Part shown: piece by piece, positions 1 to 61,535 of the stretch
How the letters are laid out: every line of letters begins with the position of its first letter
Numbering within the stretch: the stretch's first letter is position 1
NCBI GenBank assembly: GCA_050084515.1
Contig: CM114271.1
Span: forward strand, 23,436,001 to 23,500,000
Reading direction: 5' to 3'
Source of the DNA: Blasia pusilla
Lineage: Eukaryota
DNA length: 64,000 nucleotides
The notes under the pieces: model-generated
The model's database searches: none
What the model was told of the DNA's origin: nothing
Seen by the model: the letters and a program-made list of their open reading frames with translations, nothing else
Translations under genes and position numbers: made by a program

Positions 1-736
1 CGCGCCGCTTGTGGCCGCACCGCATCGTCTTGATCACCAAGCCGTGCCATCATTGGAGAGCAGAGCGTGTATTGTTGTTGAGGAGGGTATGTCGCTGAGT
101 GCCGTACCCTATTACCGAGTGTCGTGCTGTTTGTAGCCCTTCTGTGCCGAGAGTGCCGCACCGTACTGCTGGACCCGCACCACACATCGAGGAGATTTGA
201 GCATCGTCAGTACCAGAGCAGTACGACTTGCTGCTTGGAGGATTTGTCTTCACGATGGAGATAGGGTCGAGGTTTTTCAGTTGCTGAGGTCAAGTTATCC
301 ATTCTGGTCTTTTGCCTTGCACATGTTAGGGATTTCCGGGTATTGGGCAGTTCTTTGGGATATTGGGTTTCGTGTTGATGCCGAGAGCATCATTGATGTA
401 TGGGTTAGGGGACATAGACTGTGTGGGATGTCTAGAGTTGAGGGCGTGTCCTGTCGATGGGATGATAGGACAATAGACGATTTGCTGCACCATGTGCTTG
501 TTGCCGTACAACACACGTCTCAGTGAGAGAGTGTAGATTGAATGCCGCATGTTGGATTGAGTGATTACTCACAAGATTGAGAGTGATCGTGTGAGAGGGG
601 CACAAGGGTCATCACGGCGTCCTTTCAGGACTTTGAGAGGCGAGGTGGTGGACCTGAGAGTAGCTCTAGAGAATTTACCCGAAGTGGTGCGAGGTTTCTA
701 GAGTCTTTACGTGAGAGACCACCTCGATCTCCTTCT

Positions 737-3700
737 ATGTCGTCTTCAAACAAGGGGAAGAGTGTAGAGGAGTGTGCTAGTGATCCACCGCACATATTGA
801 GTGGTCCTACCAGTTGGGCGTACGAGATGGACGACCGGGGTAGAGGACCGCGTAGGTTGTGGGGTGCTATAGGCACTATAGAGTTACAAGACTTCATTAT
901 GGAGTTTAGGAGTTGGTGTGACTCACAGCGGGCTAGGAACTCCAAAGAGTTTGACCCGTTTACAGCATGGAATGGAATATTCCAACATTTAGAGGGGGCA
1001 TCCATGGACGATTACCACGAGTTCTCGCATAGATATGCCCATGACATTGAGTCCTGGAGACTCTACTATGACCTACACTATGTATCATGGACTGAGCCAT
1101 TTCTAGATGAAGAGGAGGAGCCACGAGAGGATTCCTTCACCGGTGATGTTGTAGGAGGGGTGACTCGCACTACAACAGTTGCATCGTCCATTCAAGTTTG
1201 TCCCTCGTTCAACCCCGTGGTTGAATTCTTAGGTGAGTTGAGGGCGAGCTATAAGGGGGTACAATTGGAGAAGTTGCGGAGCATCCATGACTTCCAGAGG
1301 TGCCCACGTGAGAGTTTGGGTGAGGCCTACACCCGCTTGCGCCGGTTGATTAACGTCACTCAGGGGGTGATAGAGCCTTAGGCTATCTAGTCATGGTACG
1401 CGATGTTGGGCTAGACCCTGCAGATACGTGTGCGAGAGGGGGTGCTTCTTATGAACACCTCCCCTACGTTAAGAGATGTTTTAAGGACCGCCAAGAACAT
1501 TAAGCGCAACATGGCGGAGGAGACCGTAGCCACCATGGGTTCTCAGTCACGATTGCATGCACCACCAATGCAGCAACATGGATTCTGAGATAGGTCTGTG
1601 GCACCACGAGCTCAAGGAGGATACCGGGAGGCCATGCCACAGAGACCTGGGCCTTCATATGTGGCTCAGCAGTAGCCGCCTACGATTACTTGTTGGTCAT
1701 GTGCTGGAGCCCATCATTAGCGCGATTGCACCTGTCAGGGTCATAGTCGCGTGCCTCAGCATGGAGGAGGAGATGGTGCTGCCCTAGGAGGTTATCAATG
1801 TGTCTATTGTCAAAGGTATGGTCACACACGTGCTAGGTGTTTCAGCTTGCACCCTGAGTTACGTTCGGACCGAGGTATAGAGAGGGCACCAGAGCGAGTT
1901 GCTGGTCCGGGTGGGCGTACAGGTCGTACACCAGGTGATCCCGTTGGGGGACGAGGAATGAGATTCACCCGAGGGGATGGTGAAGTTTCCCATGGAGTAG
2001 GTAGAGTCCACCACCTAGATGCGTCGAGGGAGACATCGAACATCGAGCGTGATAGCTACTCAGATATAGCAGCAGATTACTGCTATGGCATTGAGGTTAC
2101 CTGATGTCGTATTCGTGGCATCGACATCTTATGGAGCCGCCAGAGATATGGAGGATCCTGGTTGGATGTGCGGGGTTGCCCAAATGGAGGCCATTACAGT
2201 TGTTATGCGTGAAGCAGCCGCATAGTTGGATCCACAGCGAAGGAAAGCTAGGAAACAGACCATACTTCCTCAGTCCTTCACGTTTTCCGAGGCGATAAGA
2301 ACCCCATCGATGGGTCCTGATCATAGTTCTCAGAGAGTTGGTGTTGTTATTGTTGGTGTGCAGGCACGGAGGGCGATGGGAGAAGCGAGTGCAATGACTC
2401 ATATTGTTGATGCTCAAGAGGAGCATGTGTTGAGCATGTTGTTGGGGGCGGCCACTGTTGTGTACCGCGCTCCTTTATTTTCTACTTCCGATGTTATGAC
2501 GTTGGGAGGTACACCCGCTGAGGTTTTCCGGCTGACCGCTATACTATGTGAATGTGGAGTTGGAGTTCCTACATCACGTTCAGAGGTGATTGTAGAGAAG
2601 GTGATGGACCTGCCCTTGGAGTTGATGGTCGGCCGTCCACGCCAGATTTCTGGCAGGCTGCGGCTACTAGGATGGGGGAGATGCCCGCTAGACCCGCGAT
2701 AGAGCGTGCTATGGCTTCTCCTGGTGTTCTTTTGCTGGATAACTGGGGAGAGGTCTTCCAGTTGGTGAGTCGAGGAGGTAGAGCTTTTAGTTTGCAGCGC
2801 GTCTTGTTGGACTCAAGAGCGCAACCCCTTATGTTGGGGAAAGCGAAATTGAGAGGTTTGGGCCTGACGAGGGCCGATGTGGATCGTTGTCCATTCCAGA
2901 TACAGATATCCTTGAGTGAAGCGAGTACCACACAGTATATCACCCGACAGGAGGTCGTGGTGAGCATTCGCCCAGGTCATCCTACAGATGAGTCCGTCGT
3001 GCGAGCCAAGGCGATAGTGACTGTTGCAGAGTCCTACGATGTCTTGGTTGGTAGAGCAGTGTTGTACCCGATGGGGTTTTCCCTGGATTATTGGCAGGAG
3101 TCAGCATCCTACACAACAGGATGGCAGTCAGGTGATGCGCGCCTTAGCTCATTACCCGTTCAATTCACAAGTGCAGTGATCGAGCGTCGGAGACCTTAGC
3201 AACATTTAGCAGCGGCATCACTTGGCCTAGTGATTTGATTGAGGGACATGTCCATGCAGAGGATACTCCCATTCCTGACATGTCTATGGAGAGGAGTGTC
3301 ATGATCACCGAATCAGTCCGTGGAGGAGAGGTGCCGATTAGGGGTTTGACTGAGGAGCTTCCACGCTTAGCCACTGAGCATGTGGAGGCTGCGTGGAGCG
3401 AGATGTTTGCACCATAGCATGACGGGTCAGACGAACCCGAGGTAGCCGAAGGCAATGTGCTCGTGAACTTGCCCTCGTCTTTGGTGGACCAACTTGGTGC
3501 AACATGAGGTTTTGCGGAGGATGTATGCTAGAGTGGAGCGCCCCTTTGATTAGTTGGTGGATTCTATTCTGGATCCAGGTCGTCGATCACAAGCAGTGAG
3601 GCACGATGATTGATTGCTGTTGACTGTGGTCACCAAGATTGGCATGCCACGGGCAATCTTTCCCACATTTGTGAGTTTTCCCGCTTCCTATGCATTCAAG

Positions 3701-5733
3701 GAGGTCGGACCTGGCTTGGTTAGGGATGACCACATACAAAGGTTGGTGGAGCCCAACGCTGATGAGTGAGAGCAAGCGATGGGATTCCCCACAGGAGTGA
3801 CACTAGTATCGTCACTATCAGAGGCATCATGATGTCATGTCTTGGGTCAAGCGATGGACCTGAACTGCTTGACATGGATTTTCAGCCTTAGAGTAGCTGA
3901 GGAGTGTCATTTGCGGATGCAACAGATCATAGTTGTTGCGTTGGTGAGCCCCATGCCTATCGAGGTGGTTGAGGCAGTGGCTAGTGGCGAGACCCGAGGA
4001 GATCAACACACCAGGGGTCCCCTTGGACTTCTTAGGATGTTTTTCAGGTACGCCAAGAGATGATAGCCACAATATCGAGCGTGGTTACGGGTACTGCACA
4101 TGGAGATCGGATTTTGCAGTTCGCTGTAGGAGAGCAATCAAGTTCTGTTGTTCGGGACGGGGTTGCACCATAGCAATCACTGACACTTGCACCGGAGAGT
4201 CCTACCGTAGTCACAATGGAGACTTGGAAGCCAGATATGGGCCCTAAGTTGTCAGAAGGAGAACGACGCCGGAGACATCAGTTCCTAAGGAGTTATAGGA
4301 GTTGTTTTGCATTTAGCATGCAAGATTTGGGTAAGCTGAAGGGTCTAGGGATCCGCATTGAGTTGTCGATTGACACGCCAATCTTCTGACAACCCTACAA
4401 GTACAGTGATATGGAGAGGGCTCTGATTCAGAGTAGAAGCCATGACTTGGTTGGAGCAGGACTAGTGGAGATGTCGCATGGAGAGTATGTATCTGCCACT
4501 ATTATGCCCGCCAAGAAGGATGTGCATGGAAACTAGACGGATAGGCGGATGTGTGGAGATTACCGACCTATCAATCGGAAGATGAAGTCCGATAGGTATG
4601 CCATGCCCATCCCTGAGGAGATCTTTGATGCGATTGGGCATGCAAAGGTCTTCAGTTTGTTAGATCTTCAAGCCGGATACCATCAGCTGCCAATCAGATT
4701 GGAGGACAGACAGAAGACGGCATTTTGGGGCATCGATTCTCACGGGAATGATTGCTTGTACTAGTGGCAATTCTTACCATTTGGATTAAAGAACCCTCTG
4801 GCTGAGTTTTTGAGGGTCATGGATAGGATCTTGGCAGGTCTGGATTTTTCCAGGTGTTATATTGATGACATCGTAGTCTTTAGTGCCTCGGTTGAGTAGC
4901 ATGAGCAAAATCTAGAGGAGGAGTTTCGACGATTGCAATTACATGGGCTGAAGCTACATCCAAGCAAGTGCAAGTTCTTCTACGACCAAATTGGGTAGCT
5001 GGGTCATATGATATACCCAGGGAGCCTTGATATGCAACAGATGAAGGTAGAGGCTATTTCACACATTCCACACCCTACAGATGTGAGTCGAGTTCGTCCA
5101 TTCATGAGATTGGCGATCTTCTATCGACGGTACGATAAGGGTTTCAGTTCAATTGCGAAGCCGATAACCTTGCTGACCAAGGTGGATCAGGAGTGGCACT
5201 GTGGGGATGAGCAGGAGAGAGCATTTCAGCTGCTCAAGGACATATTGATGTCCGCGCCCATATTGAGGAGACCAATCAAGGGGTATTCTTTCTAGTTGCA
5301 TACCGATTGGAGCATGCTGGGGCTTTGAGCCATGCTCATCCAACATGACGATGATGGTAGAGAGTTCGTGGTGGCTCACGCTAGTAGCTCAAACAACGCT
5401 GCAGGAACAAAGTATAGCTTGTTTGAGGGTGAGTGCTTGGTTGCGGTGTGGGTTGTTGCACATTTCAGGTGTTATATATTCGGTAACCCCTTTACCATCA
5501 TTATTGATCATCAGCCACTTAAGTGGTTGATGGAGTCCGACAAGCTTATAGGGAAGCTTGCGAGGTAGACTCTTTTGTTGTAGGAGTATGACTTCCAGGT
5601 GGTGCATAGACCTGGGATGCTCAACCAAGATGCGGATGGTTTGAGCCGTAACCTTGGCCGAGTCAGCGAGATGCGATTGGAGCTCCTTGGCATGGCGAGA
5701 GTGATGAGGAGTTGGTGCCACAATGGCAAGCGT
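737..5733 (+). pseudogene. Degenerate gag-pol of copy 1
   Basis: ORF pieces 737-1381, 1751-2104, 2552-3199, 4549-4764, 5008-5295 and 5332-5568 are collinear gag/PR/RT/RH fragments. Confidence 0.92.
3473..3885 (+). pseudogene. C-terminal half (motifs VIII-X) of C5 cytosine DNA methyltransferase inside pol of copy 1
   Basis: Reading through stops: PRLWWTNL...RLVEPNADE*EQAMGFPTGVT...HVLGQAMDLNCLTWIF. Collinear with 54810-55215 of copy 3; motifs I-VII are missing. Confidence 0.85.
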
Positions 5734-8700
5734 TCATAGACTCATCATCCAACCCCACCACTGAAGTCATCACCTGTGGCTGACCTACCATAGTCAACCA
5801 ACAAAGATAGGAAGATGCATGCCAACCGAGCATCATCTCCTCATCACTCTCTCCGTGCCATCGAGCTCCTCTGTCGTCTCTCTGACTTGAACATGGGTTA
5901 CGACTCAACCCATTCGCATCCTGGTTTAGCCAACCTGACCTATGAACCACCTCAAACTCATACTCTTGTAGTAATAGAGCCCACCTGGCGAGTTTTCTTG
6001 TAAGCTTGTCGGACTCCATCAACCACCTCAACGGCTGATGATCACTGATAAGTGTGAAAGGGTTTTCGAATAAATAGAACCTGAAATGTGCCATGGCCCA
6101 CACTGCATCCAAGCACTCTCCCTTGTAGGAACTATACTTTGCCTCTGCAATGTTGTTCGATCGGCTCGCGTAAGCCACAACGAACTCCCTCTCCTCGTCA
6201 TCCCTCTGAGTAAGCACTGCTCCTAGACCCAACATGCTCCAATCCGTATGTAACTGGAATGGGCGACCCCTAACCGGTCTCTGCAAAATGGGTGAGGACG
6301 ACAACCTGTCCTTGAGCTCCTGAAATGCTTGCTCATGATCATCTCCCCACAACCAAACCTGATTAAGTCTCATCAACAAGGTCAAAGACTTTGCAATTGC
6401 ACTAAAACCCTTGACATACCGTCGATAGAATTTCGCCAGTCCAAGAAATGCTCGGACTCAACTCACATCTGTAGGGCGTGGAATCTGCGCAATAGCCTCT
6501 ACCTTTGTCTGCTAAACGCCTAACCCACTCGGGTATATGGTGTGTACCAAATACTCAATCTGCTTGTGAAAGAATCCGCACTTGCCTGGATGTAATTTCA
6601 GTCCATGTAACTGCAATCGCCGAAACACCTCCTCTAGGTGTCGCTCACGCTCCTCAACCGTGGAACTGAAGATAAGAATATCATCTATGTAACATCGTAC
6701 AAACTCCAAGCCAGCCAGAATCCTATCCATCATTCTCTGAAACTCTGCAGGTGCATTCTTCAACCCAAATAGTAAGAACCGCCACTAATACAAGCAATCT
6801 CTCCCGAACCAATCTATCCCCCAGAATGTTGTCTTCTCCCTGTCCTCCAACCTAATAGGAAGCTGATGATAGCCATCACGGAGATCTAAAGTACTGAAGA
6901 TCTTTGCATGCCCTACCGCATCAAAGATCTCCTCAAGAGTAGGCATGGCATACCGATCTGACCTCGTCTTTCGGTTGATAGGACGGTAATCTCCACACAT
7001 CCGCCTATCCATCCAATTGCCATACATATCCTTCTTTGCTGGCATGACTGTGGCAGATGCATACTCCCCATGTGATCACTCCACAAGTCCTGCCTCCAAC
7101 AAGTCCTGACTTCTGCTCTGAATCAAGGCTCGCTCCATATCAGAATATCTGTAGGGTCGACGAAAGATCGGCATATCACTAGCCAACTCAATCCGTATCC
7201 CGGGACCCTTCAGCGTACCCAAGTCTCTCATACTGAAGGCAAAACAACTAACATGCCCTCTCAAAAACCTATGAACTCGCCGTCGCTCTCCTCCTATCAA
7301 CTTGAGACCTATCTCAGGCTCCCAAGTCTCCATCGTGACCTCATTGGGAGATGACGCAACCTCCGGCTTTGGTTGCTATGTAGCAATCCTAGCCACCTCC
7401 GCAACAGCCACTCCAGTCTGACCTCCTACACCATGCTCCACATCCAAAAAATGAACATGTGCTACTCTGGCCGCCTTCGCACTCTCTGCTCGAACAACGT
7501 CCTAGGAAGTCCATGGGTGCATATCTCTTCTCATCTCGCCCCCAGCCGATGCCTGTACAGACCGTGTAGGCAATGGTCCAACTTGTGGACGTGACGGCAT
7601 GGATGACACTCGCATCCGTCTCTGCTCAACCATACCTAGGCTGACTATCCATGTGAGACAGCTCCACGCGTGCCTCACGAGATTGTCGGCACTCCTCTGT
7701 AGCTCTCGAGTCATACCCCACAATGGTGAAGATGTCTCGCCAACATGGGAAGAGACACTCGCCATGGACTGTCTCTCCGTGGGACTATCCGCTACTGGGA
7801 CATCCCCCGCATGTGCGTTCCCCTCCAACAACTCTCTTGGCGAGCTAACACTACCTGTGAAAGCTGCCAACGTGGTCACAGACTCGCCTCGTGATCGACC
7901 ACCTCGTCTCGTAAACTGCACGGGTAACTGACTCATCCGTCCGTCACCTGACCGCCACCCTGGCCGATAAGCAACGGTCTCCTCCCAAAATTCAAGGATG
8001 AATCCTAGGGGATATAACATTGTACTCCCTACCAACACATCGTACGACTCAACTGGTATCGTAATCGCACGTGTGCGCACCATAGCACTATCCGTCGTAT
8101 GCTCTCTCTGGACTATGAAAACTATCTCTTTTTGAGTCATATACTGCGTGGGTGACACGTCCCCAATCGAGGTCTGTATCTGGAAGGGACAAGGCTCAAT
8201 GTCGGCCTTCCGTAACCCCAACGCTAAACACACCGCCTTCCCTAACATCAAGGGTTGCGCTCCCGAATCAAGTAGGACGCGCTGCGGGTGGTATACCGTC
8301 CCCATGGGACTAACCAAGCGAAATACTCTAGCTCGGTTATCGAGTAATACTACTCCAAGTGTCACCACTACTCGCTCTATGGCTGATCGAGCTGGGATAT
8401 CTACCAACTTCTCCACCACCGCATGCCATGACTCTGTGGGAAACGTCTCAAGCACCGGCTCTGAGGGCAAGTCCACCACCTCGTCAACTACCCCTAAACA
8501 AGAAGTTGTCACCTCTCCACGCTCACACAACATGGCGGCCAGCCGGAACACCTCAGCTGGTCCAACTCCCAACGTTGCCAACTCTATGGCGGAATATAGT
8601 GGAGTCTGACTCACTCTGGTGGCCACCTCCAACAGTATGGTCGACACTGACTCTGCTCAAGTCGGCATAGGAGTTGTCACTCCAGTACCTGCCTGAGCTA

Positions 8701-10448
8701 TAGGCACCGCTGGTCGTCGAGGCACCATCGATGGTGTGTGTAGTGCCTCCAAAAATGTGAATGACTGTGGAACCCTGGCCTGCCGCCCATCGATCCCCTC
8801 TGGTGGGTCAATCTCAACTCCACCTCTCGATGGCTCGGTGCCTCTCGCAGCACCCCGAGTCACCACTGCAGCTGCCTCAACCTGGACTGCACTACACATA
8901 AACCCCATACTGGCAAGATCCTCACCCGGATCAGGGTAAGAGGTAGAAGCTGGAGTCACACTAGGTGCTCGCAGATCCGTGCCTTCCCTAAGCTGCATCA
9001 TCGTCATGGCACCAATCCTCTGCTCCAACTGATCGATGCGTGAGAGAGGTGCCGGCTCTGGTGCTCCTACTCCATCTCCTCTAGCTGGTGGTGGTCCTCT
9101 ATCACCACGTCCAGGAAGAACTCTCCGACCTCCTCTAGGACGACGGCCTACCTTTGGACGTGCCTCTCGACGAAGGTCAAAACACCTATCCCAAGTGTGA
9201 CCATATCTATGGCAATAGTCACACTAGTGCTGTGGTGGGGCCATCCTCTGTGGCTCCTAAGCAATCAGAGGCGCTCGTGGTCCTCTCCCATGTTGTGTGC
9301 AGTCTCTCTGCCGATGAGCCCCGGCCTCCACACGTCCAACAAGACAACATCGGTCCTTGCTCGGCAATATATGTAGGTACGGGTCATTGCCTCATAGGCT
9401 CACGGTACCCGCCCTGCTCTCTGGGCACACTCGCCCGCTCCCGTGGTACTGGTGCTTGCTGTGGCACCTGTGGGGTCATTGTCGCTCGTGGACCCGTCGA
9501 CTCTCGAGAAAATCTAGCGGTCACTACATGCTCCTCACTCATGTTGAGCTCAATACGCTCAGACAACTCAAAGACCACCTTCAATGTGGGCTTCGCTGTG
9601 TGAATCAGCACCGCATCTCGGACTCTCCTCCGTAGTTCTCGGTCCAGAACCCCGTACCAATACTAGACTGACTACGCCTTAGTCACTCCATACGTAGCAA
9701 TGATCAGCCTCCTCATGCGCGTGAATGCCTCTCTCAGAGTCTCACCTGATCGTCGCTGAAAATCCTGTAGACTCTTCAACTTGTCGGTGCGTACGCCTTG
9801 GTAGCTCTTCCCCAACTGTCGGAAGAACTCCACTGTGGGGCTAAAGCTGGGTGGCTCTCTACCACCAGCGGTCTCTGCCACATCGCCTGTCTCATTGCCC
9901 TCCTCTCCATCTAGTCTCCGGGTTGATGGTGTGGGTCTCTGTCCTCTCACAATCCCATCATATGCCTCGCGACCACTAGTGGAGACATACCTTGGAGCCC
10001 AATACATCCTCCAGGCATCGATCTCTAATGAATATAGTGATCAAAATTCCATGTAATCATCCATCGGAGGACCCTCCAAGTGTTGGAACAACCCCTTCCA
10101 TGCCATGAAAGGGTTGAACCGTGTCGGGGTCTGTATCTCTTGGAAGTCGCACCACGTGTCGAACCCTTGGATAAAATCATCTAAGTCGATGGTGCCCACT
10201 ACATCCGAGAAATGACGCATGCCTCGATGGCCCATGTCATCCATCTCTTGCCAAGTGATACTGCCTCCGTCTGCGATCTCGTCACCAGACCCAGTGTCTA
10301 GTGATGACGATCCAGCCACGGATGGATGTTGAGGTAGCTCCTCACTCGTAAATCCTCGGTATCTCACTCCACTCCGTGTCACTCCACTACTACTGCTCGC
10401 ACTACCCCGTTCTTCCGAACCCTGGAAGAATGCCGTGATGACAACCAT
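5734..10448 (-). pseudogene. Degenerate gag-pol of copy 2, lacking the methyltransferase domain
   Basis: ORFs 10041-10448, 9672-10007, 9384-9611, 8657-9028, 7502-8647, 7076-7333, 6785-7045, 6512-6763 and 5663-6385. Confidence 0.9.
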
Positions 10449-11613
10449 GTCTCACCCGCTCAAGCACTCAGACTCACCGAGAGTCTCCCACACTCCTCAC
10501 TAGCTCACCTATGCTAAGGTCAATCTCATGATGACACACCTGACCTCACGCACACTCAACACTCGGGCTCACCATGAGCCTCCCAACTGACTCACCTAAC
10601 TTAGCGACACTCACCTAACCTCTTGAATCATACATGCGACCCCTACGCGGAAACCGCCGTATATCCACTAACATGCTACACATGAAAAGAGTCTACACTC
10701 GTCACCATCACTGCACCCACCTAGCACCAGCTACTACCCAATACCCATCAATCTCAATCACACACGACAAGTGCGGGAAAAGGGACTCGAACGGGTAACC
10801 TGATCACGCCCTCCAACCTACGTACCGTCAGCACTCACTCCTCCATGTGGTATGACAACCCCGATCTGCAACACAACACTCTCCTCGACCACACCTTGAA
10901 CCTCCCATCAACGGATGTGGACGAACCGTCGGCATCTGCGCTTGCGTCTCTACGTCCAACACTTTGTCATGAACTATCGATGCAACTCACAATCTCACCA
11001 TCCATCGGATCAGAGCCTCAAGTCTATACATCCTGAATCTCCCATCCGACTCCGAAAACCCCAACGCAGGCCCACTCAACGATGTAGCTATAGTCTCATG
11101 ATGGACTGCCCTACCTTGTAACTCTCCAATCACCAACATACCACATTCACTGCTCAACCTGGTCGGCCCTACAACCATGTCGGCCTTCCTACCATGTGAA
11201 GCCACCTCTACTCCGTCCAACACTCTCCTCCATCCGTTTGGCTCTTCCCATTTGGGCACACGGCCCTATGCGGGCACACCTGCCCATCCCTCTTCCTCCA
11301 TCTTCGGAGCTTAATGACTCCCGTGGACTCGTCTACGCCCTTGGAGCTCCTCCTCCATGGGCAGTTGGTCCTATTCCTCTCCCTACCCATCTCCCTCTTT
11401 ACTCCCTTAGGCCCGGCCCTATGGGGCCGGGCCTTGTTCTCTCCCCCTTTGTCCGCACCCTCTTTCCTGCTTTTTAGGAGCCATCATGGCTCCCCCTTAG
11501 GTAGGCCGTACTTGGTAGATACGAAGGTACCTGCCCTAGACCCTCGGAGCCTTAATGGCTCTTCCTTCCTAGTTACTCCCGACATTCCCGCTATTAGACG
11601 ACGCTACACCTGC

Positions 11614-14262: not shown

Positions 14263-19357
<5,095 letters not shown>

Positions 19358-49754: not shown

Positions 49755-50164
49755 AATTCTCTCTTTGTTGAACCTCTTGGCATGAGGTGGTGGAGCTATG
49801 GTCTTGCTTGCCTTGTGAGTGTAACACAAGCCTCTCATTAGGAGAGTGGGTTTGGTTTGACATTGAGAGAGATATGTGAGAGTGCACACATGTGAGAGCT
49901 ATGGTGTTGTAAAAAAGATTTCACCTTATTTTACAAAGAGAGAATGAGAGGGTGAGAGAGCTTCATGAGGGAGCTCGCTGGTTGCTCGATGTTTGGTGCA
50001 GGTTTGGGGACCGTGTTCCTCGCTTCATGGCTCATGGGAGTGCTCAAGGGAGCAAGAGCCGCGGTATTTTGACGTTTGTGTGCCGATTTTTCGTGTGAGA
50101 AAGTGGCGCGCGGAAGCGTTGCCCAATTTCTGATAGGGATTGAGTATGGGGGCAGGTTGCCCCA
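49755..50164 (+). repeat. Right part of the 5' LTR of copy 3
   Basis: 49758-49932 closely matches 58731-58888. The end GCGGAAGCG...GCAGGTTGCCCCA parallels the copy-2 LTR end GCGGAAGCG...GCAGGTTGTGACA. Confidence 0.7.
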
Positions 50165-53100
50165 CGCCGGTGCTCTTGGGAGCACCATTTAGCTTGTTGA
50201 TTTTTGTTTTCACAGGTTTTACATTTTTGTTGGGGGAGAAATCAGAGCGGAAGCACTGCCAAATTTTGTGTAGGAGAAAGAGACGTTGGGCTTTACGACA
50301 GTCCCTACCAATTTTTACTGGAATATCCAATTCAAAATGTTTTTTGATGCCATTGTAGATCGTAAAGCTGTGCACGCTATGCAATAGATGGTGCACAATT
50401 TGAGTTGCAACCAAAAAGTTATGGTCAATTTTGCAAAACTACCATTGCTAGGCGATTTTTAGGGTAAAATTGTTCAAACCCTAAACCAACCGTTGTCATA
50501 GTCACCGTCAATGGTCCGCCGTCAATGGTCAACCATCACCATCAACGGTACACTATCCACCGTCGGCCATCGCTGCCACCTACCGCTGCTTAGAGCCGCG
50601 TAAGGCCTTTGTCCACCCTTGGTTGCCATTGTTGTCATTACGGAGTGGAGGGTCTTCAACGACGACCGTTGATTCTCTGACTTGCCCCGCCACCACGTAC
50701 TTTTTTTTGGCCGCCACCATCATCGCAGTTCCGTCATCAACCAGTGATGGCAAGTGACCTCGGGTTATGGTGTTTGAGTTTTCATTTCATTCTGCTATGT
50801 TGTAATTGGTAGCCGCTCGACGACGATCGAGTACCGTGTTGTAACGCCCGTAGTCGCAACGCACCGTTGATTTCCGTGCCGTGCTGCTCATGGCCGCATC
50901 GCACCATCTCCATCGCGAAGCCGCTCCTACACTAAGGAGGACAATGTGAGTGTTGCTGACCGAGTTGGGATCGAGATTTGCAATTGTCGAGGAGCGACAT
51001 CGACATTATTGTCAGATTACCCATTTTGGTCTCTTACCATGTACGTGTGAGGGAATTCTGGTTATTGGGAAGTTATTTGGGATATTGGGGTTTGTACTGA
51101 TGCTGAGAGCATCGATGACGTATGGGTAGAGGGGACATAGATATATGTGGGATGTCGAGAGTTGAGGATGGTTTATCGATGAGACTATAGATCAGTTGAT
51201 TTGCCATACCACGCCGATTGTTGCTGCACAACACACGTCTCGGTGAGAGAGTGTAGCTTGAGTGTTGCATGTTAGATTGAGTGATTGTATGATTACTCGC
51301 GAGGTTGAGAGTGATCATGCGAGGGGGGCACGAGGGTCATCACGGCGTCCTTTCCGGACTTTGAGAGGCGAGGTGGTGGACCGAAGAGTAGCTCTAGAGG
51401 GTTTAAGTGGAGTGGCGTGAGGTTTCGAGGGTCTCCACCTGCAGGACCACCTCGACCTCCTTCTATGTCATCTTCAAACAAGGAGGAGGGCGTAGAGGAG
51501 TTGAGTAGTACTTTGCCACTCACATTGAGTAGTCTACTGCTTGGGCGTACAAGATGGACGACCGGGGTAGAGGATTGCGTAGGTTCTCAGGTGTAGTAGG
51601 CACGATAGAGTTGCACGACTTGATCGTAGAGTTTAGGAGTTGGTACGACTCACAACGGGCTACGAACTCAAGAACTTGTTTATAGCATGGAACGGTATAT
51701 TCCAGCATTTAGAGGGGGCATCCATGGATGATTTCCATGAGTTCTCCCATAGATATGCCCAAGAGATTGAGGCATGGTGACTCTACTATGACCCACACTA
51801 TATGTCATGGACAGAACCGTTCCCAGATGAGGAGGAGGAGTCAAGAGAGGCTACTTCCTCTTTCACCAGTGATGTTTTAGGAGGGATAAGTTGCATTGGA
51901 GCAGTTGCACCGTCCAGTTGGGTTAGTCCCTGGTTCAACCCCGTGGTTGAGTTCTTTGCTGAGTTGAGGGCGAGCTACCAGGGGTTACGGACGGAGAAGT
52001 TGCGGAGCATCCACGACTTTCAGAGGCGCCCGGGTGAGAGTTTGCGTGAGGCTTACACTCGCTTGCGCCGTTTGATCAACATTACTTAGGGGGGTGGCAG
52101 ATGCTCAGGCTATCCAGTCATGGTACACGATGTTGGATCAGATCTTGCGGATATGGGTGCGGGAGGGGTTACTTCTTATGAACACCTCACCTACGTTGAG
52201 AGATGTTTTTAGGATCGCCAAGAATATTGAGCGCAACATGGCGGAGGAGAGCGTAGCCACCATGGGTTCTGGGCGAGAGTAGTTACGATTGCCTGCACCA
52301 CCGGTGTAGCAACGTGGACTCTGAGATAGGTCGATTGTGGCACCACGAGCTTAGGGAGGATATCGAGAGGCCATGCCACAGAGACTTGCGCCTTCACATG
52401 TGGCTCAGCAGCAGCCACCTACGATTACTTGTTGGTCATATGGTGGAGCCCATCATCAGCGTGATGGCATTCGTCAGGGTCATGGACGTGTGCCTCAACC
52501 TGGAGGAGGAGATGGTGCTGCACCAGGAGGTTATCAGTGTGACAATTGTCACAATTATGGTCACACGCGCGCCAGGTGTTTCAGTTTACACCCTCAGTTA
52601 CGTCTGGACTGAGGGCCAAAGAGGGCACCAGAGCAAGTTGTCGGTCCGGATGGGCATAGAGGATGTGCATCCAAGTGGTTACGTTGGGGGACGAGGAGCT
52701 AGAGTTTCCCGAAAGGGTGGTGGAGTTGCTCGTGGAGGAGGTAGAGTCCCACCACCTAGACGCGTCGAGGGAGACACCAAGCGTGAGGCTGGGATGGTTT
52801 CTTAGATACATCAGCTATATGAGCAGATTTTGGCTATGGCACTGAGATTACCCGATGCCGGATCCGCGGCATCGACATCATATGGAGCAGCCAGAGATAT
52901 GAAGGATCATGGTTGGATGTGCGGGGTTGTCCAAATGGAGGCTGCCGCAGTTGTGACGTGTGAGCAGCCGTAGAGTTGGATCCATAGTGAGGGGAAGCTA
53001 GGAAACAGACCAAGCTTCCTCAGTCTTTCACGTAGTCTGAGGCAATGAGGACCCCATCAATGGAAATTGATCAAAGTTCCCGGAGAGTTGGTGATGTTAT

Positions 53101-54274
53101 TGGTTTGCAAGCATAGAGGGCAATGGGAGAAACGAGTATGATAACTCCTATTGTTGATGCTCAGCAGGAGCATGTGTCGAGTATGATGTTGGGGGCGGGG
53201 CCATGATGGTGTACCGTGCTCCGCTATTTTCTGCTTTCGATGTTATGATATTGGGAGGTACGCCCGCCGAGGTGTTTCGGCTGGCCGCTACACTATGTGA
53301 GCATGGAGTTGGAGTTCCTACATCACGTTCAGAGGTGATTGCAGAGGAGGTGGTGGATCTGCCCTTGGAGCGGATGCTCAAGCCGTCCACGTCAGATTCA
53401 TGGCAGGTTGCGGCTGCTAGGATGGCGGAGATGCCCGCTAGATCCGCGATAGAGCATGCCATGGCTTCTTTTGGTATCGAGTTGTTGGATAAAAGGGGAG
53501 AGGTCTTGCAGTTGGTGAGTCCTAGAGGTAGAGCTTTTAGTCCGCAGCGCGTCTTGTTGGATTCAGGAGCGCAACCCCTGATGTTGGGGAAAGCGTTATT
53601 TAGAGGATTGGGCTTGATGAGAGCCGTTATGGAGCGTTGTCCATTCCGGATACAGATATCCTTGGATGGAACTAGTACCACATAGTATATCACCCGACAG
53701 AAGGTCGTGGTGAGGATTTTCCTGAGACATCCTACAGATGAGTCCGTTGTGCGAGCCAAGGCGATAGTGACTGATGCAGAGTCCTACAACGTCTTGGTTG
53801 GTGGAGCAATGTTATACTAGATGGGGTTTTCCCTAGATTACTGGGAGGAGTCAACGTCCTACAGACCAGGATGGCAGTCAAGTGATGGGCGCATTAATTC
53901 ATTACCCTTTTGATTCACAGGTGCAGTGATCGAGCGGCGGCCAAGAGAGATGGCGACCTTAGCAGAATTTAGCAGTGCCATCACTTGGCCTAGTGATACA
54001 ATTGAGGGATATGTCCATGCAGAGGATACTCCCGTTCTTGACATTTATATGGAGAGGAGTGTCATGGTAGCCGCATCAGTCCGTGGAGGAGAGGTGCCGC
54101 TTTGGGGCTCGACTAAGGAGCTTCGACGCTTAGCCACTGAGCATGTGGAGGCCGCGTGGTGCGAGACCTTTGCACCAGAGTGTGACATGTTAGAGGAACC
54201 CTAGGAAAGGCAAGAGTGATGTTATGACCCCTTTGGACTCCATCCCGATTGTGTGGTGCATCCTAGAGTAGTGT

Positions 54275-55215
54275 ATTCAGGTGTTGGATGGATGTCTTTG
54301 GAGGGATCAGACCTGGGTTAGCTGTTGTTTTGCATGTTGGAGTGCGCGTGCAGCAGTACCTGTATGTGGAGATTGTTGATGTTACGAGGCGATCTTCACT
54401 TCACCATATGGTGTAATTACCGCTCTGTTTTCCCGACTTGTTGTCTGCGTCCGCCATTCTAGGTTACTAGAGTTCCCTATCGAGGGACATTTCATTGTTG
54501 GGGGTGCAAGACTTGGAGCGAGTAGGGACCATAGACTTGGTCATTGCTGGTTGGCCATGTCAAGGCCAGTCGAGTGCTGGACGGGATAGCGGATTAGTTG
54601 ACTCTCGGTCCGGGTTATTTTGGGAGATGATGCAGATTTTGTGACACTTGCAGGAGCATCACTCTCGTCCTCCAACATACATTCTGAAGAATGTGCCAAT
54701 TTTGGGCAATTCGAGGTCCCGTGTGGTGACAAGTGCACATCAGGTGCGCGCATGGATTGGCCTGGGAGTTTTGTTGGATGCGGCGAGTGTGGGTTCACGA
54801 GCACATTGACCGCATCTTTGGTGGACCAACTTGGTACCACATGAGGTGTTGCAGAGGGCTTATGCAAGAGAGGAGCGTCCCTCCGATTGGTGGGTGGATT
54901 CTATATTGGATCCAGGACGTCAATCACAAGCAGTGAGGCACGATGATCGACTGTCGTTGACTATGGTCAATAGGATTGGCATGCCATGAGCAGCCTTTCC
55001 CACATTGGTAAGTTTTTCCGCTTCCTATGCATTCAAGAAGGCCGGACCTGGCTTGGTTTGGGATGACCAAGTATAGAGGCTGGTGGAGCCCAACGCCGAT
55101 GAGCAAGAGCGAGCGATGGGATTCCCCATAGGAGTAACGTCAGTACCGTCACTATTAGAGGCATCACGACGTCATGTCTTAGGTTAGGCGATGGACATGA
55201 TCGCTTGACATGGAT
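54275..55215 (+). pseudogene. Full-length C5 cytosine DNA methyltransferase catalytic domain within pol (pseudogenised)
   Basis: IQVLD/DVFGGI (I), YLYVEI (II), RDI (III), IDLVIAGWPCQGQSSAG (IV; PC at 54555-54560), DSRSGLF (V), YILKNV (VI), AH*PHLWWTN (VIII), EQERAMGFPIGVT (IX), RRHVLG*AMD (X). One frame from 54291 to 55199 with 7 stops. Confidence 0.92.
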
Positions 55216-57946
55216 TTTCAACTTAGGAGTAGTTGAGCATCGTTGTTTGAGGATGTGACAGATCACAACTATTGTGTTGGTGAGCCCCATGCCTACCGAG
55301 ATGGTTGAGGCAGTGGCTGGGGGCAAGATCCGAGGAGATCGACACATCAGGGGTGATTGGGAGAGACACACTTGGACTTCTTGGGGTGTTTTGCAGGTAC
55401 GCCAAGAGATGGTAGCCACAGCATCGAGCGTCGTTCCGGGTACTACAAGTGGAGATGAGAGTTTTGTTGTCTGAGACGGGGTTGCACCATAGCAACCATC
55501 TACACCCGTGTGAGAGATTCCTATCGTAGTCACGATGGAGACTTGGGAGCGAGATATGGGCCCTAAGTTAACAAGAGGAGAGCGGTGCCGGATACACCAA
55601 TTCCTTAGGAGTTAAAGGTGTTGTTTTGCATTTAGTATGCATGATTTGGGTACGCTAAAGGGTCCAGGGATCCGCATTGAGTTGTCGAGTGACCAAAAAC
55701 CCTACAGGTATAGTCACATGGAGAGGGCTCTCATTGAGAGTAAAAGCCATGACTTGGTTGGAGCAAGACTAGTGGAGATGTTGCATGGAGAGTATGCATT
55801 TGCCATTGTCATGCCGGCCAAGAAGGACGTGCATGGCAACTGGACGGATAGTCGGATGTGTGGAGATTACCGACCTATCAATTGGCAGAGGAAGTCCGAT
55901 AGGTATGCCATGCCCACCCCTGAGGGAATCTTTGATGCGATTGGGCATGCACATGTCTTCAGTTCATTAGATTTGCGAGCCGGATACCATTAGTTGCTTA
56001 TCAAATTGGAGGACAAACAGAAGACGGCATTTTGGGGCATCAATCCTCACGCCCATATTGAGGAGATTGATCAAGGGGCGTACTTTCCAATCGCATACCG
56101 ATTGGAGCATGTTGGGGCTTGGAACTGTGCTCACCCAGCATGACGATGATGGTAGAGAGTTTATGGTGGCTTATGCTAGTGGCTCGAACAATGTTGCAGA
56201 GGCAAAGTATAGCTTGTATGAGGGTGAGTGCTTGGCTGCAACGTGGGCTGTCGCACATTTCAGATGTTATCTATTCGGCAATCTCTTTACCATCATTATT
56301 GATCATCAGTCACTTAAGTGGGTGATGGAGTCTGACAAGCTTATAGGGAAGCTTGCGAGGTGGGCTCTTTTGTTGTAGGAGTATGACTTCCAGGTGGTGC
56401 ATAAACTTGGGACACTCAACCAGGATGCAAATGGTTTGAGCCGTAATCCATGCCCGAGTCAGCGAGATGCGACTAGAGCTCGTTGGCATGGTGAGAGTGA
56501 TGAGGATTTGGTGCCATGATGGCATGCGTCAGCCTATTTGGGCTTGTTGGCTATGGAGAGCCAGATTGTTGAGACTTTGATGGCAAGGTCTGATGGAGAG
56601 TCCTTAGATCTAGAGGCATGTGAGGAGACGATAGGTGGCCGAGACATTCACAACGATGGAGTGGTCTTGAAGTACCTATGTACTAGCAGTGTCGCCAGCA
56701 CAGTGGATGCTAGAGAGCGGGATCGTATCTTACAACGAGACAGACGGTTCCGGTGGGTGGGGACACATGTGTTGCAAGTATGGGAGGATGGTAGAGTGTG
56801 TGTAGTGCCTCATCCTTCGCAGAGATTACATTTGGTGTGTCATGCCCATGAGTAGTTGGGTCACTTTGGAGTGAAGCGAACATACAACTTGCTCCAGATT
56901 CAATTTTGGTGGCGAGGCATGCAGACTAACATTTAGCAGTTTGTTGTCAGATGCATGGCGTGTGATCAAGTCTGAGCATCGTTCAATGCTCCGACTCCAC
57001 AGTTGCATCCACTTCCGATCATGGTTTTAGGTTATAGATGGAGTTTGGATTGTGCAAGATCTTTGCCTTTGACAGAGCGCCATTATGTGTTGTTATGTGT
57101 TGGTGATGTTCAAGCACTTCTTCAAGTGGATAGAGTTAGTTGCATTTCCTGACAAAGCGAGTCAAGGAGTAGCGTATGCCTTCCTAGATCAAGTGCTGAG
57201 TCATTACATTGCATCAGTTGAGGTGTTGACAGACGAGGGTACAGAGTTTCAAGGGGAGTTTCAAGCCTTGTGTGATCAGGCACTGATCGACCACCGCACC
57301 ACTTCGCGAGATCATCCTAAGGCGGCTGGACTAGCGGAGAGGATTATGCACATGGTGAAGAGAGCATTACGCAAGTAGGGCTTGCAAAGAGGTCACCTAG
57401 GAGATTGGGACTTCAGTTTCCGTGGTTGGCGATGGAATACAGATTCACAGGCAGACATCCTTAGCGTCTTTCTCACCGTACTTGCTGCTTTATGGCCGTG
57501 AGCCAGATTTACCTATGGCCATTCGTCAAGATGTTGGTGAGGTGTTGAACCTTGATGACCCTGATGTATGGATGCGATCATGTTCTCAGAGGGCTCAATT
57601 GTTTCAGAGAGTGATGCCCATGGCGTTTGAGAACTTGGCGATTCCGTAGCATCGTGATACATTGAGGTATGCGACTATACAGGGAGGTGGTTATCAACCT
57701 ACTTTCTGGAGGTTTCATCAGGGAGACTATGTCTACTTATAACAGACGGCATCTACAACGTTGGATGTGACTACAGGGCCCACCATCTTGAGAGTGCGTG
57801 AGATTTTATCATCAGGTGTTCTCTTATTGGAGGGACGCGATGGTATGGTTTGGAAGGACCATGTGCGTAACTGTGCGTTATGTCACCTTCCGAACATTGA
57901 CCGTATAGTTGATCCGAGTTTAGCAGTAGTTCGTGCAGGCTTGCGA

Positions 57947-58087
57947 TGTATGTTGTGTGGTTCTGCCCGCGGTGCAGCCATTATGCCAGTCTGTGATGGA
58001 TGTTCGAGAGGATGGTATATGGCATGTTTGACGCCACCTCTCACTAGGGTTCCTCAAGGACGATGGATGTGTCTCAATTGTACATAG
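57947..58087 (+). pseudogene. PHD finger at the integrase C-terminus
   Basis: CMLCGS...VCDGCSRGWYMACLTPPLTRVPQGRWMCLNC, a C4HC3 pattern with His to Tyr (CAT to TAT). Confidence 0.9.
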
Positions 58088-58399
58088 CATAGGTAGTTCT
58101 ACATTCCGACTTGTGTCTGTGATATGGATGACAAGAAGGCGACTAACAATGGGGCCACATGAGCACCCGACCTTCTTGCTCTTAGCGTCCGAGAGATGTA
58201 TGTCATGGTAGGTAGGGATAGATGGCTATCTGGAGTTAGAGGGACCTAACCACCAGCTAGGGGGGCAATTGGAGATATTTTGGTACTTCTTGTCTCATTG
58301 TTTGGATGCCATGAGTAAGCATGGGATGGTGCGTGTTTGTATGTGTGTGTTCGGTGACAGCGATGTAAGTTGCGTAGCGATATATATGCGTACGACAGT

Positions 58400-58888
58400 T
58401 GTCACATCTTTTAGGATAGATCACGTGAGATCTACTAGAGCGCCTTTGGAAGTAGTGGAGGATAGGCTTAGGAGGTCGAGGATGATCTACTAAGGCCCCG
58501 GGAAACCTGAGAGAGCAGGTTTCCCCTTCGTTTTGGCTCATTTGAAGCCATATTGAGGAACTTACTATTTTAGGTAAATATCATTTTGCCTTTATATTTT
58601 TGGTAAGTAACCCTTGATCTCCTACATCATGTCAAGAGCCAAAGAGGTGACTTGAGAGCATAGGTTACCGTGGAGAGAGCTTGGGAGAGAGGAGGGGTAT
58701 ACCTCAAGGAGAGAGAGCTTGAGAGCTCATTCTCTCTTTGTTGAACCTCTTGGGATGAGACGCAGAGCTATGGTCTTGCTTGCCTTGTTAGTGTAACCCA
58801 AGCCTCTCATTAGGAGAGTGGGTTTGGTTTGACATTGAGAGAGATATGTGAGAGTTATGGTGTTGTGAGAGAGATTTCATCTTATTTT
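58400..58888 (+). repeat. 3' LTR of copy 3, truncated
   Basis: Starts TGTCACATCT like the copy-2 LTRs and matches the split 5' LTR. Confidence 0.75.
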
Positions 58889-59019
58889 AATTGGAGATAT
58901 TTTGGTACTTCTTGTCTCGTTGTTTGGATGCCATGAGTTAGCATGGGATTGTGCATGTTTGTGTGAGTGTGTTTGGTGATAACGATGTATGTTGTGTAGC
59001 GATGTGTATACGCACGACA
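58889..59019 (+). repeat. Direct duplicate of the ~130 bp segment 58267-58398
   Basis: AATTGGAGATATTTTGGTACTTCTTGTCTC...ACGACA occurs at both sites. Confidence 0.9.
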
Positions 59020-61535
59020 TAGTGCACACCTATTATAATAAGTGATCCTAGGGTTGGTCATGTGAAGTCTCACGTTGACATGTAAAGACCTAAGGAGCAT
59101 AGATTTTCTTTGTCTTGCTTTTCTCGAAAACGAAAACTATTTGATTTAGATCCCAACTTCTCCACTCTTGCCGCTAATGTTTTTAGTGAGTTTGAGCAGG
59201 TTAAGGAAGTTCAAAAAGGCCATAATATTTTAGGTATTGTTCCGAGTGATACGAGATACTCTATAGAAATTTGTCCCGGTCTTGAAGAACAAGACGATGA
59301 TGGAAACATTTCCTCTTCGCTCTATGATTTAGAGGGATGGTATATAGGTGATGAGCTTGATCGTGAATATAGGCATATCAATTATACAGAGTTTGACCTA
59401 AGTGTTGATAGTAGTGAGATTGGAGATTTCAAAGTTGATACTCTTTCTCCCCATGATGATTCAAGTGTTTAATAAAGCAATCAGTATATATTAATATATG
59501 TTATTTCCATTGATGTTTGTATGTAGTGTTCATGCTACAAATTATGTTACTTTTTATTTTTTTCATTTTATCCAAAATTATCATGTTATTTAAATGTAAT
59601 GACTTATCACATATTTTGTAGATTGTGTCGAATTAGTATACGAGGAACCGTATATTTTAAATGACGAGTCAAGAAAGTAATGGTGAGTCATATATTCCTC
59701 TTGGTGAAGAAGCAATTGAGCTTATGGCTGAAAATCCTGAGAGAATTGAGGTTGTACAAGTATCGAGCGATGTTTATGTTCCAACACCTGTGTTTGATGA
59801 AGAAGTAGACAATTAGTACATGATAGTTCCTATCGAGGATATCAGGCAAGAGCTCGATGAGAGTGTATCTAGAGTTGTATCCACTCCATTAGTAGGACAA
59901 ATCAATCCATGTATTAACATTGAGCCATCACAAGGTGAGGAGGAAGAAGGAGAGACAAGTTTGACTAATGATTGTATTCCTTCCTCTGAGCCAATATCCT
60001 CTAGCTATTCATTTGTTTGAAATGCCTTAGGTTCTAGGTTGTGGGCTGTAAGTAATGGTCATACTAATAACTTTGCAGACTCAAGTGAAATCAATACTGT
60101 TGAGTCCCACTTGATGGTAGATTCATTATCTTTTTGAAATATGAAATGTAATAAACTTTCCCTTGTGGGTAAGATATCAATGTAATAGTGAATTTTGTTA
60201 GTTCTTTTATTCCATAAATGTATATTTGTAAGTGTTTATGTATATTGAAATTTACTTTTTCCTATGTAGAAACAATCATTATATGATGGCTCAAGATCAA
60301 GGAGCCGGAAGTAATGGTAAATGGCCCTTTAGGGACCTCACAAATTTCGGGGGCAATATGCATCTTGAATCTAAGACAGAAAAAAGGCTGGGTATCAAAG
60401 GAAAAAATGATAACATCAAGATGTTTGCTTTGTACCTCTTTCTACAACTAGAGCGTCTGCAATGTAAGAATATTTAGCGCTATTGTAATGTAAATTTAGT
60501 TGGATTTTGTGGAATATTTTATTTATTTTTATATTTATTATTTCATCTCACTTATTATTGTAGATTCCAAATCCAGTTAATGCATGACGGCAAAGTCAAA
60601 TTCACAAAGATGCGAGAGCCGTCAAGTACAAGTCGAAGATATGGAAATTCGGATCTAAGGTGATTTTCTAATTTATTTGATTAGTATTTCAATATTGAAA
60701 CTATTTTGAATAATCTATGCTTATTATGAATTTTTTTTTGTTATGCATTTGAAATATAGTTGTTGAAAATGTGGTCCATTGTTGTATTAGCTCAAATTCA
60801 GAGATAAAGATTTGATGATTTTATTTAGCTTGATGATATTGGATGCCATTGTAATTCTTGTAGAATGAGTGATACATATGAAGCAAATGCGATTGTTCGA
60901 TTGACTCCTGCACCCATTGAAGAAGTAGTGGCTTCTTTGACCACGACTAGAATTGATGACTTGAATGTTGAAGATACTATCAGGTATTAATATTTTTGTA
61001 TATGCTTCGAGTTGCACGAGCGCAAGGGCAAAGTCCCAAAGACGTAGACGTTGTGATCTACTTGATGTACTCGATGGATCAATTATTGGCGATTCTTTGT
61101 TAAGGACAAATACCAATGAAGGCATACAATCCATTGGAAGATGTCTTCCTCCCATTAAGGAAGTACTCGCTCCTACAACTGCTGCTACGATTGATAATTT
61201 TGATGTTGATAATAATATAAGGTATACTTTTTATTTTATTTTCTATTATTAAAAGATTTATGTATATTTTTCGAATCTTATATACCAATTGATTTTGTAC
61301 CATTTTATTATTTATTTAGCTTAATTATCGCACACACTGATTTCATTCCTAAAATTTTTATTCTTCGCAGTCTTCGTGCTCCTTCCAACCCTAAAAGATT
61401 ACAAGATACGCTTCAAGCAGCACGAGCCAATGGCCAAAATGAAGGCATGTTAATTTAGTCGCATCACATAATGGAGGACTATTTGGTGATTCAACAACAA
61501 GGAATAATATACTTCACGAAAATCTTCCTCATGAA

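Follow-up and report, generated by a model that had tools for sequence, protein, structure and literature searches.

A dead Ty3/Gypsy-type retrotransposon copy in Blasia pusilla belongs to a family that pairs a predicted DNMT3-like methyltransferase with an integrase-terminal PHD finger

Can one retrotransposon carry both an enzyme that could write DNA methylation and a finger that could read histones? This question is raised by a stretch of 64,000 nucleotides from the bryophyte Blasia pusilla (GenBank assembly GCA_050084515.1, contig CM114271.1, positions 23,436,001 to 23,500,000 of the forward strand), which we call the window and whose coordinates we use throughout. A first-pass annotation of this DNA had proposed that one element in it joins a methyltransferase to an integrase-fused PHD finger, as reader and writer in one polyprotein. 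We found that this element, copy B (about 49.8-59.0 kb, plus strand), is a bryophyte retrotransposon of the Ty3/Gypsy type, dead but almost full-length. By Pfam and tblastn its pol region reads, in order, protease, DNMT3-like cytosine methyltransferase (DNA methyltransferase, DNMT), reverse transcriptase (RT), RNase H, integrase and PHD finger. Copy B has the order protease, RT, RNase H and DDE integrase of Ty3/Gypsy elements (Metaviridae), and Ty3 is the closest of the solved chains to the RT of an intact relative, P0037 (E 2.2e-94).

All parts of copy B lie on the plus strand. The gag-like region (51315..52802) is spread over several frames and was recognized from the open reading frame (ORF) list and from about 82% identity to a second copy in the window, copy A; it holds a CCHC zinc knuckle at 52538-52579 and gave no significant Pfam gag match. 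The aspartic-protease region (53158..54201) was placed by ORFs and by a tblastn match of 53764-54177 to the N-terminus of the Marchantia model P0020. Its LLDSGAQ motif (53554-53574) is presumably the active site. The DNMT domain follows in a single frame at 54288..55196 (tblastn, 35% to residues 4-314 of P0037). After it come the N-terminal part of RT (55529..56101, tblastn), the RNase H domain (56049..56375; PF17917, E 2.1e-28) and the zinc-binding domain and catalytic core of integrase (56520..57420), the last matched by tblastn to P0037 and P0025 and by Pfam rve at E 3.8e-06, below the cut-off. The C-terminal region of integrase (57434..57946), a helical part and a small beta-barrel, matches P0037, P0025 and P0020 at 54-72% by tblastn and is supported by an AlphaFold model of the Marchantia relative P0003. 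The PHD finger (57947..58081; PF00628, alignment A1) completes pol, and the stop codon TAG stands one codon past it at 58085-58087. Between the beta-barrel and the finger, at 57866-57901, lies a strongly conserved motif, H..NCAPCHLP.ID, whose second Cys is invariant in alignments A1 and A2 (23 and 55 sequences).

The methyltransferase belongs to the same element, as had been claimed. Pfam recognized PF00145 in a fragment at 54471-54641 (E 3e-09, 37.2 bits, cut-off 22), and tblastn extended the match to 54288-55196. The DNMT motifs are motif I (54291-54317), motif IV (GWPCQGQS, 54549-54572), motif VI with LKNV in place of ENV (54681-54695) and the DNMT3-type SRAH/LWWTNL motif (54792-54833). Motifs I, IV, VI and VIII thus stand in order within 54291-54833, i.e., there is no rearrangement. 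When the DNMT of P0037 was compared with solved structures, DNMT3B, DNMT3C and DNMT3A were the best matches (E 1e-06), and HaeIII (4e-05) and plant DRM (1e-04) ranked lower. The DNMT3-type motif AHR-R-FW-NL falls within the P0037 match, and copy B has a broken form of it. By its sequence, then, the element's enzyme is predicted to be DNMT3-like, in agreement with the first-pass annotation.

The finger is likewise where it had been placed, at the end of pol. PF00628 matched residues 69-113 of a 114-residue ORF at 57743-58084 (E 5.3e-07, 30.0 bits, cut-off 24), the sole PHD match among the 104 window ORFs of at least 95 residues that we scanned. The earlier start of the feature, at 57761, takes in the integrase C-terminal beta-barrel besides the finger. 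No Chromo family was reported by Pfam in the window ORFs or in 14 relatives, which bears out the claim that the integrase does not end in a chromodomain. The description "integrase-fused" holds by homology only, because stops and frameshifts cut the PHD ORF of copy B from the integrase core; in the intact relatives P0025, P0031, P0034, P0037 and P0045, integrase and PHD finger share one ORF. The description as a C4HC3 finger is right for seven of the eight zinc ligands. The His, which had been written in brackets, is a Tyr in the window (58016-58018), and 76 of 79 close relatives keep the His.

Copy B does not have two plain long terminal repeats (LTRs). Its layout is A1 ... B1-A2-B2, in which repeat A1 (49756..49933) is a remnant of the 5' terminal repeat, 84% identical to the end of A2 (58729-58889) by blastn self-comparison. 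The 3' split direct repeats (58267..59035) consist of B1 (58267-58413), A2 (58414-58888) and B2 (58889-59035), with B1 and B2 86% identical. Immediately 5' of them is a polypurine-tract-like ctaggggggc (58257..58266), and the same tract occupies the same place in the related locus L030. The full layout recurs in L030 and L066 and was found in 6 of the 49 loci with enough 3' sequence. B1 begins 180 nt past the stop in the window and 176-183 nt past the finger in L001, L002, L020, L024, L063 and L066. Many reads diverge at 58266, and we had considered this position as a truncation point; we dropped this idea on finding that relatives share B1-A2-B2 at the same distance from the finger. The reads that diverge belong to subfamilies whose repeats differ. 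The split-direct-repeat layout is typical of some DIRS-type elements; in copy B it occurs alongside a DDE integrase. Upstream, copy B is adjoined by a tandem array of about 350-bp repeats (45790-49500; families D1-D4, D10 and D12). This array may have replaced most of the 5' repeat of copy B.

How far has copy B decayed, and is it alone in its host? Its DNMT frame contains seven in-frame stops. The RT catalytic core (residues 641-794 of P0037) is deleted at about 56051, about 510 bp of RT that copy A keeps are gone (blastn), and 229 whole-genome sequencing reads continue at 56051 with sequence unlike the window. The integrase core itself is broken by stops, and further stops, at 57647 and 57740, separate it from the finger. 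The integrase frame also shifts near 57084-57101 and 57420-57447; compared with most reads, the window has indels at 57084/57086 and 57447. Only copy B, or a minority of copies, has the RT deletion and the frameshift near 57447. For these comparisons, one whole-genome run and three RNA runs of the host were mapped on 53900-58300 at 90% likeness or more. Only 125 of the 17,495 DNA reads so mapped were at least 99% alike, and the family is therefore multi-copy. Most genomic reads disagree with the window at 304 sites; at 191 of them the window has A or T and the reads G or C, and at 22 the reverse is true. Thus, copy B decayed mainly through C-to-T and G-to-A changes. Such an A/T excess is what deamination of methylated cytosines would be expected to leave behind. 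The RNA runs gave 891, 1067 and 891 mapped reads with the first mate mostly on the minus strand, so that, given the usual convention for stranded libraries, the family is transcribed in sense in the host.

We asked whether the pairing of DNMT and PHD finger extends beyond this locus. A search with the PHD ORF returned 41 proteins, for 36 of which PF00628 is recorded, and in all 41 the finger terminates the protein, 2-5 residues beyond the last Cys. Marchantia polymorpha and Calypogeia fissa supply the closest matches, at 70-78% identity, and Sphagnum fallax is also represented. When 1.84 billion representatives were searched with a profile that joins the integrase C-terminus and the finger, there were 7736 matches, 350 of them at E<=1e-30, and the finger is present in 144 of the best 150 representatives. 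Upstream of integrase, 51 of these best 150 are informative. Their order is RT-RNase H-DNMT-integrase-PHD in 41 and DNMT-RT-RNase H-integrase-PHD in 2 (43/51 with DNMT). P0037, an intact protein of 1516 residues, has the second order, which is that of the window. A set of 80 metagenome loci encoding closer relatives (58-77% identical) was also scored, 49 of them being uninformative. The order protease-DNMT-RT-RNase H-integrase-PHD was found in 25 of 28 informative loci; 3 further loci have both DNMT and PHD finger with RT deleted, and of the 3 scored without DNMT, one (L079) has a DNMT 3.1 kb upstream of RT.

The search from the DNMT side gave the same pairing. With the DNMT of P0037 as query, the finger was present in all 4 long proteins. 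With that of P0077, there were 112 proteins, of which 74 extend past integrase and 65 of these carry the finger; several of the remaining 9 have PHD remnants. This search yielded 34 intact one-ORF proteins of the RT-RNase H-DNMT-integrase-PHD order, with Haematococcus lacustris, Chromochloris zofingiensis and Cymbomonas tetramitiformis as named hosts. A search for related loci with P0037 as query found no relative. The co-occurrence that the first-pass annotation had expected is therefore conserved in both search directions, intact elements included, and these sequences make a strong case for DNMT-PHD pairing at the family level.

These results bear on another alternative, that accident brought the two domains together at this locus, through nested insertion, chimeric assembly or a host PHD exon that happens to adjoin a transposon. 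The window does contain three interrupted elements of the family, and some Marchantia gene models (P0013 and P0020) are chimeric. Against this, 25 independent loci, and intact ORFs of many origins, repeat the order with the finger as the last part of pol, and the 3' repeats begin at the same distance from the finger as in relatives. We regard an accident as highly improbable.

Several public gene models (P0013, P0020 and P0289) annotate pieces of the element as host genes. The Marchantia model Mp_7g09570 fuses protease, DNMT and integrase-PHD pieces, and a Cymbomonas copy carries the name "Methyl-CpG-binding domain-containing protein 9". A separate observation concerns the sequence beyond the finger. 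In 104 of the 144 representatives with the finger (P0042, P0043, P0044, P0060 and about 90 others), more than 100 residues follow it; the window clade has no such tail. The tail has two conserved blocks, WGRV.Y.G...RP..F.V.YEDG and a SAM-methyltransferase-like DPWAG.G ... TSP. No Pfam family matched the tails of the algal members at E<=0.001, and one member gave a faint match to MethyltransfD12 (E 0.033, 14.3 bits, cut-off 22).

Two positions of DNMT within pol led us to consider whether the enzyme had been captured twice. We built quick unrooted trees from 58 integrase rows and from 39 DNMT rows, X replacing each stop of the window's DNMT. The forms with DNMT before RT fall, in the integrase tree, in one clade with a support of 96 in the Shimodaira-Hasegawa-like approximate likelihood ratio test; this clade also has the closest intact relatives of the window and is nested among the forms with DNMT before integrase. 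In the DNMT tree, the branch joining the four DNMT-before-RT sequences is weak (support 56). The window clade has the same neighbors in both trees (P0131, P0077, P0166, P0116, P0067, P0042, P0171, P0174 and P0185). These shared neighbors, in trees that are unrooted, led us to drop independent capture at two positions and favor relocation of DNMT within the lineage. The data thus fit a single acquisition of DNMT, followed by a putative move within pol.

What would the finger bind? Of 185 fingers of the family, the numbers that retain each of the eight zinc ligands are, in order, 185, 185, 183, 183, 183 (the His), 183, 176 and 167. Pfam reported no other reader-domain family, such as ADD, for the 114-residue ORF. 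A sequence-profile search of solved chains was led by CHD4, KMT2D, KDM5B PHD1, DPF3, KDM5A PHD1, PHF12, ATXR5 and BHC80. For the fold, we used the AlphaFold model of P0003 (predicted local distance difference test, pLDDT, 82.6); a model from the shallow alignment A1 was discarded at pLDDT 45.9. The predicted P0003 finger superposes at 0.6-1.3 A on DPF3b, DPF2, BAZ2A/B, UHRF1 and BHC80 and more loosely on ATXR5 (1.8 A) and KDM5B PHD1 (2.2 A). Several of these structural neighbors are titled as complexes with unmodified H3, and no ING/BPTF-type finger is in the profile-match or fold-neighbor lists. Two residues before the His, at the position of a cage residue in K4me3 readers, the family fingers have no Trp. 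In sequence and predicted fold, then, the finger resembles the kind that binds the unmodified H3 tail.

The contacts themselves can be compared with KDM5B PHD1, for which PMC4225485 describes P-x-G-x-W as the anchor of H3 Ala1, a pairing strand and, following Cys3, an Asp that binds Arg2. The family keeps the anchor and the Asp (P in 180, G in 152, W in 170 and D in 172 of 185 fingers), and its pairing strand reads M/L/L; in the window finger one strand residue has changed from Leu to Pro. Binding of the H3 N-terminus by the finger is therefore plausible from its sequence. A competing view is that the finger is not a histone reader and binds another N-terminus or partner, such as a host factor or an element protein, or is a structural zinc module of integrase. 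Consistent with that view, the bryophyte clade has no acidic Lys4 pocket, the UHRF1 finger has also been solved with the non-histone peptides PAF15 and Stella (by entry titles), and PMC8557442 reports PHD as an accessory domain that is common among many unrelated transposons of Chlamydomonas. What argues against it is the conservation of the Ala1 anchor, pairing strand and Arg2 Asp across the 185 fingers, together with the fact that all close solved relatives are H3 tail binders by title. We think a non-histone role quite unlikely.

How, then, might the two domains serve the element? The explanation that we prefer, and that we consider probable but well short of certain, combines the identity of copy B with a division of labor. 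In live members, the PHD finger, as the last domain of integrase, would tether the integration complex to nucleosomes through the free H3 N-terminus. This would bias the landing sites of new copies, as the chromodomain does in chromoviruses. The DNMT3-like enzyme would methylate new cDNA or the fresh insertion, as has been proposed for KnitGypsy-Dnmt3, an element family of Klebsormidium. The finger and the enzyme would then serve the same element and would not necessarily form one physical reader-writer unit.

A number of results weigh against this explanation or limit it. Copy B itself cannot make any protein, and no close locus among the 80 keeps DNMT and PHD finger in one open frame, the longest ORF through the finger being 1461 nt. 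DNMT is not obligatory in PHD elements: in a related element of the window, element C, RT directly follows protease with no DNMT, the element ending before integrase, and P0034 has none as far as its ORF extends. Also, 8 of the 51 informative representatives show no DNMT between RNase H and integrase, the pre-RT region being uncovered in most of the 8. In the host DNA reads, the DNMT bins have a depth of about 60 per orientation versus about 170 for the PHD bins (about threefold shallower). In RNA run X16 the depths are about 1 versus about 34 (about 30-fold shallower at 90% likeness or more). Thus, the transcribed members mostly are without DNMT, or have a DNMT less than 90% like that of copy B.

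Further points concern the finger and its distance from the enzyme. An acidic residue before Cys1 (KDM5B D308; BHC80 E488/D489) is described as holding the Lys4 amine. The bryophyte clade, the window included, has A-G-L-R-C there, with positions -2 to -4 non-acidic and -1 basic, and the loop after Cys2 (SAGQAAR) is also non-acidic. In the wider family, D or E occurs at position -3 in 80 of 185 fingers. With the Lys4-contacting acid absent, reading of unmethylated K4 is not implied for the bryophyte clade, where the finger may bind a ligand other than H3K4me0 or other than H3. The earlier view of the finger as an unmethylated-K4 type is supported by its neighbors in profile and fold and weakened at this residue. 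In the window clade, moreover, some 1,000 residues separate the finger from DNMT, which stands between protease and RT; the two therefore need not share one protein after polyprotein processing. Physical coupling of reader and writer is possible and is unsupported for the window clade.

A further reading, that of the first-pass annotation, is a true reader-writer module, in which the finger would read the state of the H3 tail and direct or gate the element's own DNMT3-like enzyme, much as in an ADD-methyltransferase. DNMT and PHD finger have stayed paired across deep divergence and in two different arrangements of pol. Most of the family has DNMT-integrase-PHD, so that both could stay on one processed protein, and the finger appears to be of the same functional kind as unmodified-H3 readers and the enzyme DNMT3-like. 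Set against this are the RT, RNase H and integrase that separate the two in the window clade, PHD elements without DNMT that persist and seem more transcribed, the missing Lys4-contacting acidic residue of the window clade, and the nature of the finger, a plain PF00628 PHD in an ORF for which no ADD was reported. We judge such a module unlikely. The related proposal for the family as a whole, that a chlorophyte-bryophyte Gypsy clade keeps writer and finger because they cooperate, the finger placing or gating DNMT on H3K4-unmethylated chromatin, we hold as a tentative idea that is more doubtful than credible. If it were true, the family would be a transposon-built equivalent of the ADD-DNMT3 circuit, and the element would pick and mark its own landing sites.

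Returning to the preferred explanation, a tethering finger and a self-methylating enzyme in one element, its broader interest lies in the family. Retrotransposons with a DNA methyltransferase and retrotransposons with a histone reader are each already known. Here, one large green-lineage Gypsy clade almost constantly has both DNMT and PHD finger; the domains of its pol come in two orders, and its split repeats are DIRS-like. If the finger steers integration or DNMT, the family would offer a compact natural system for chromatin reading and writing by a mobile element. It could also aid in understanding the heterochromatin of bryophytes such as Marchantia, which is rich in transposons.

The rest of the window has plant-like content: pieces of CDC48 and Dcc1 genes, a CACTA transposase, a Helitron and the satellite of about 350 bp. 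Copy A (289..5733, plus strand; blastn, tblastn) is of the same family as copy B and about 82% identical to it. It has half a DNMT (3476-4048) and ends within RNase H, and its finger is therefore not in the window. Element C (5788..10451, minus strand) is related and inverted and consists of gag, protease, RT and RNase H (Pfam, tblastn, blastn). Copy A and element C stand head to head at 5733-5790, each broken off in the stretch from RNase H to integrase. A CDC48-like AAA ATPase gene (14266-18052), a Dcc1 gene (24324-25573) and pieces of a CACTA transposase (38499-42238) lie on the minus strand, and a Helitron Rep fragment (61443-63536) lies on the plus strand.

How does the element compare with known systems? 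DNMT3A and DNMT3B combine a DNMT3-type catalytic domain with ADD, a PHD-type zinc finger. The copy B element is like them in having a DNMT3-type catalytic domain and a PHD-type finger, with relatives that read unmodified H3, in one gene product. It differs in that ADD lies beside the catalytic domain, whereas copy B carries a plain PHD on the distal end of integrase.

Chromoviruses share with copy B a histone-reader-type domain at the C-terminus of a Ty3/Gypsy integrase, and chromodomains direct integration from that position, according to two preprints (bioRxiv 10.1101/2021.11.30.470311; 10.64898/2026.05.21.726589). Their reader is a chromodomain, whereas the copy B family carries a finger that appears to be of the unmodified-H3-tail kind. 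The first preprint names PHD and Chromo as the readers that occur most frequently in fusions with transposons (bioRxiv 10.1101/2021.11.30.470311). According to PMC8557442 and PMC9940879, PHD is a common accessory domain in Chlamydomonas elements, and REM1 and Gypsy-7a_cRei resemble copy B as green-lineage Gypsy-type LTR elements with a PHD. The legend for Gypsy-7a_cRei, which we compared with copy B by description, puts PHD before integrase and does not name a DNMT. The first-pass annotation had held that non-chromovirus Gypsy lineages with PHD exist in early-diverging plants; our family searches show them, while the term "PHD" has 0 occurrences in the plant LTR survey PMC6317226.

We class the copy B element as a variant within the Gypsy-DNMT3 kind, and its closest known family is KnitGypsy-Dnmt3. 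In PMC5890265, Dnmt3-bearing Gypsy elements are described in Klebsormidium and self-methylation of their cDNA is proposed. KnitGypsy-Dnmt3 has, like copy B, a Dnmt3-related, non-rearranged DNMT inside the Gypsy pol ORF of a streptophyte, and the legend of Fig. 4c gives it DIRS-like repeats with Gypsy domains (PMC5890265), as copy B and its relatives have A1 ... B1-A2-B2. Its host is Klebsormidium and that of copy B a bryophyte, and the two are likened by published description. In the copy B clade, DNMT lies between protease and RT; the text of PMC5890265 does not state its position in KnitGypsy-Dnmt3. The term "PHD" is absent from the main text and three supplements of that paper, the figure itself excluded, and K. 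nitens proteins were not among the named matches of our PHD and DNMT searches. We found no description of a Gypsy element with both DNMT and PHD in the literature searched. The streptophyte "Gypsy-DNMT3" is cited in 10.64898/2026.05.21.726589, where a PHD domain is unmentioned in the text ("PhD fellowship" is the sole occurrence). That preprint describes EpiLTRs and DAM-LTRs, which are, like copy B, LTR retrotransposons with several epigenetic domains. As given there (bioRxiv 10.64898/2026.05.21.726589), their domains are an adenine methyltransferase, a DNMT4-like DNMT and a chromodomain, whereas those of copy B are a DNMT3-like DNMT and a PHD finger.

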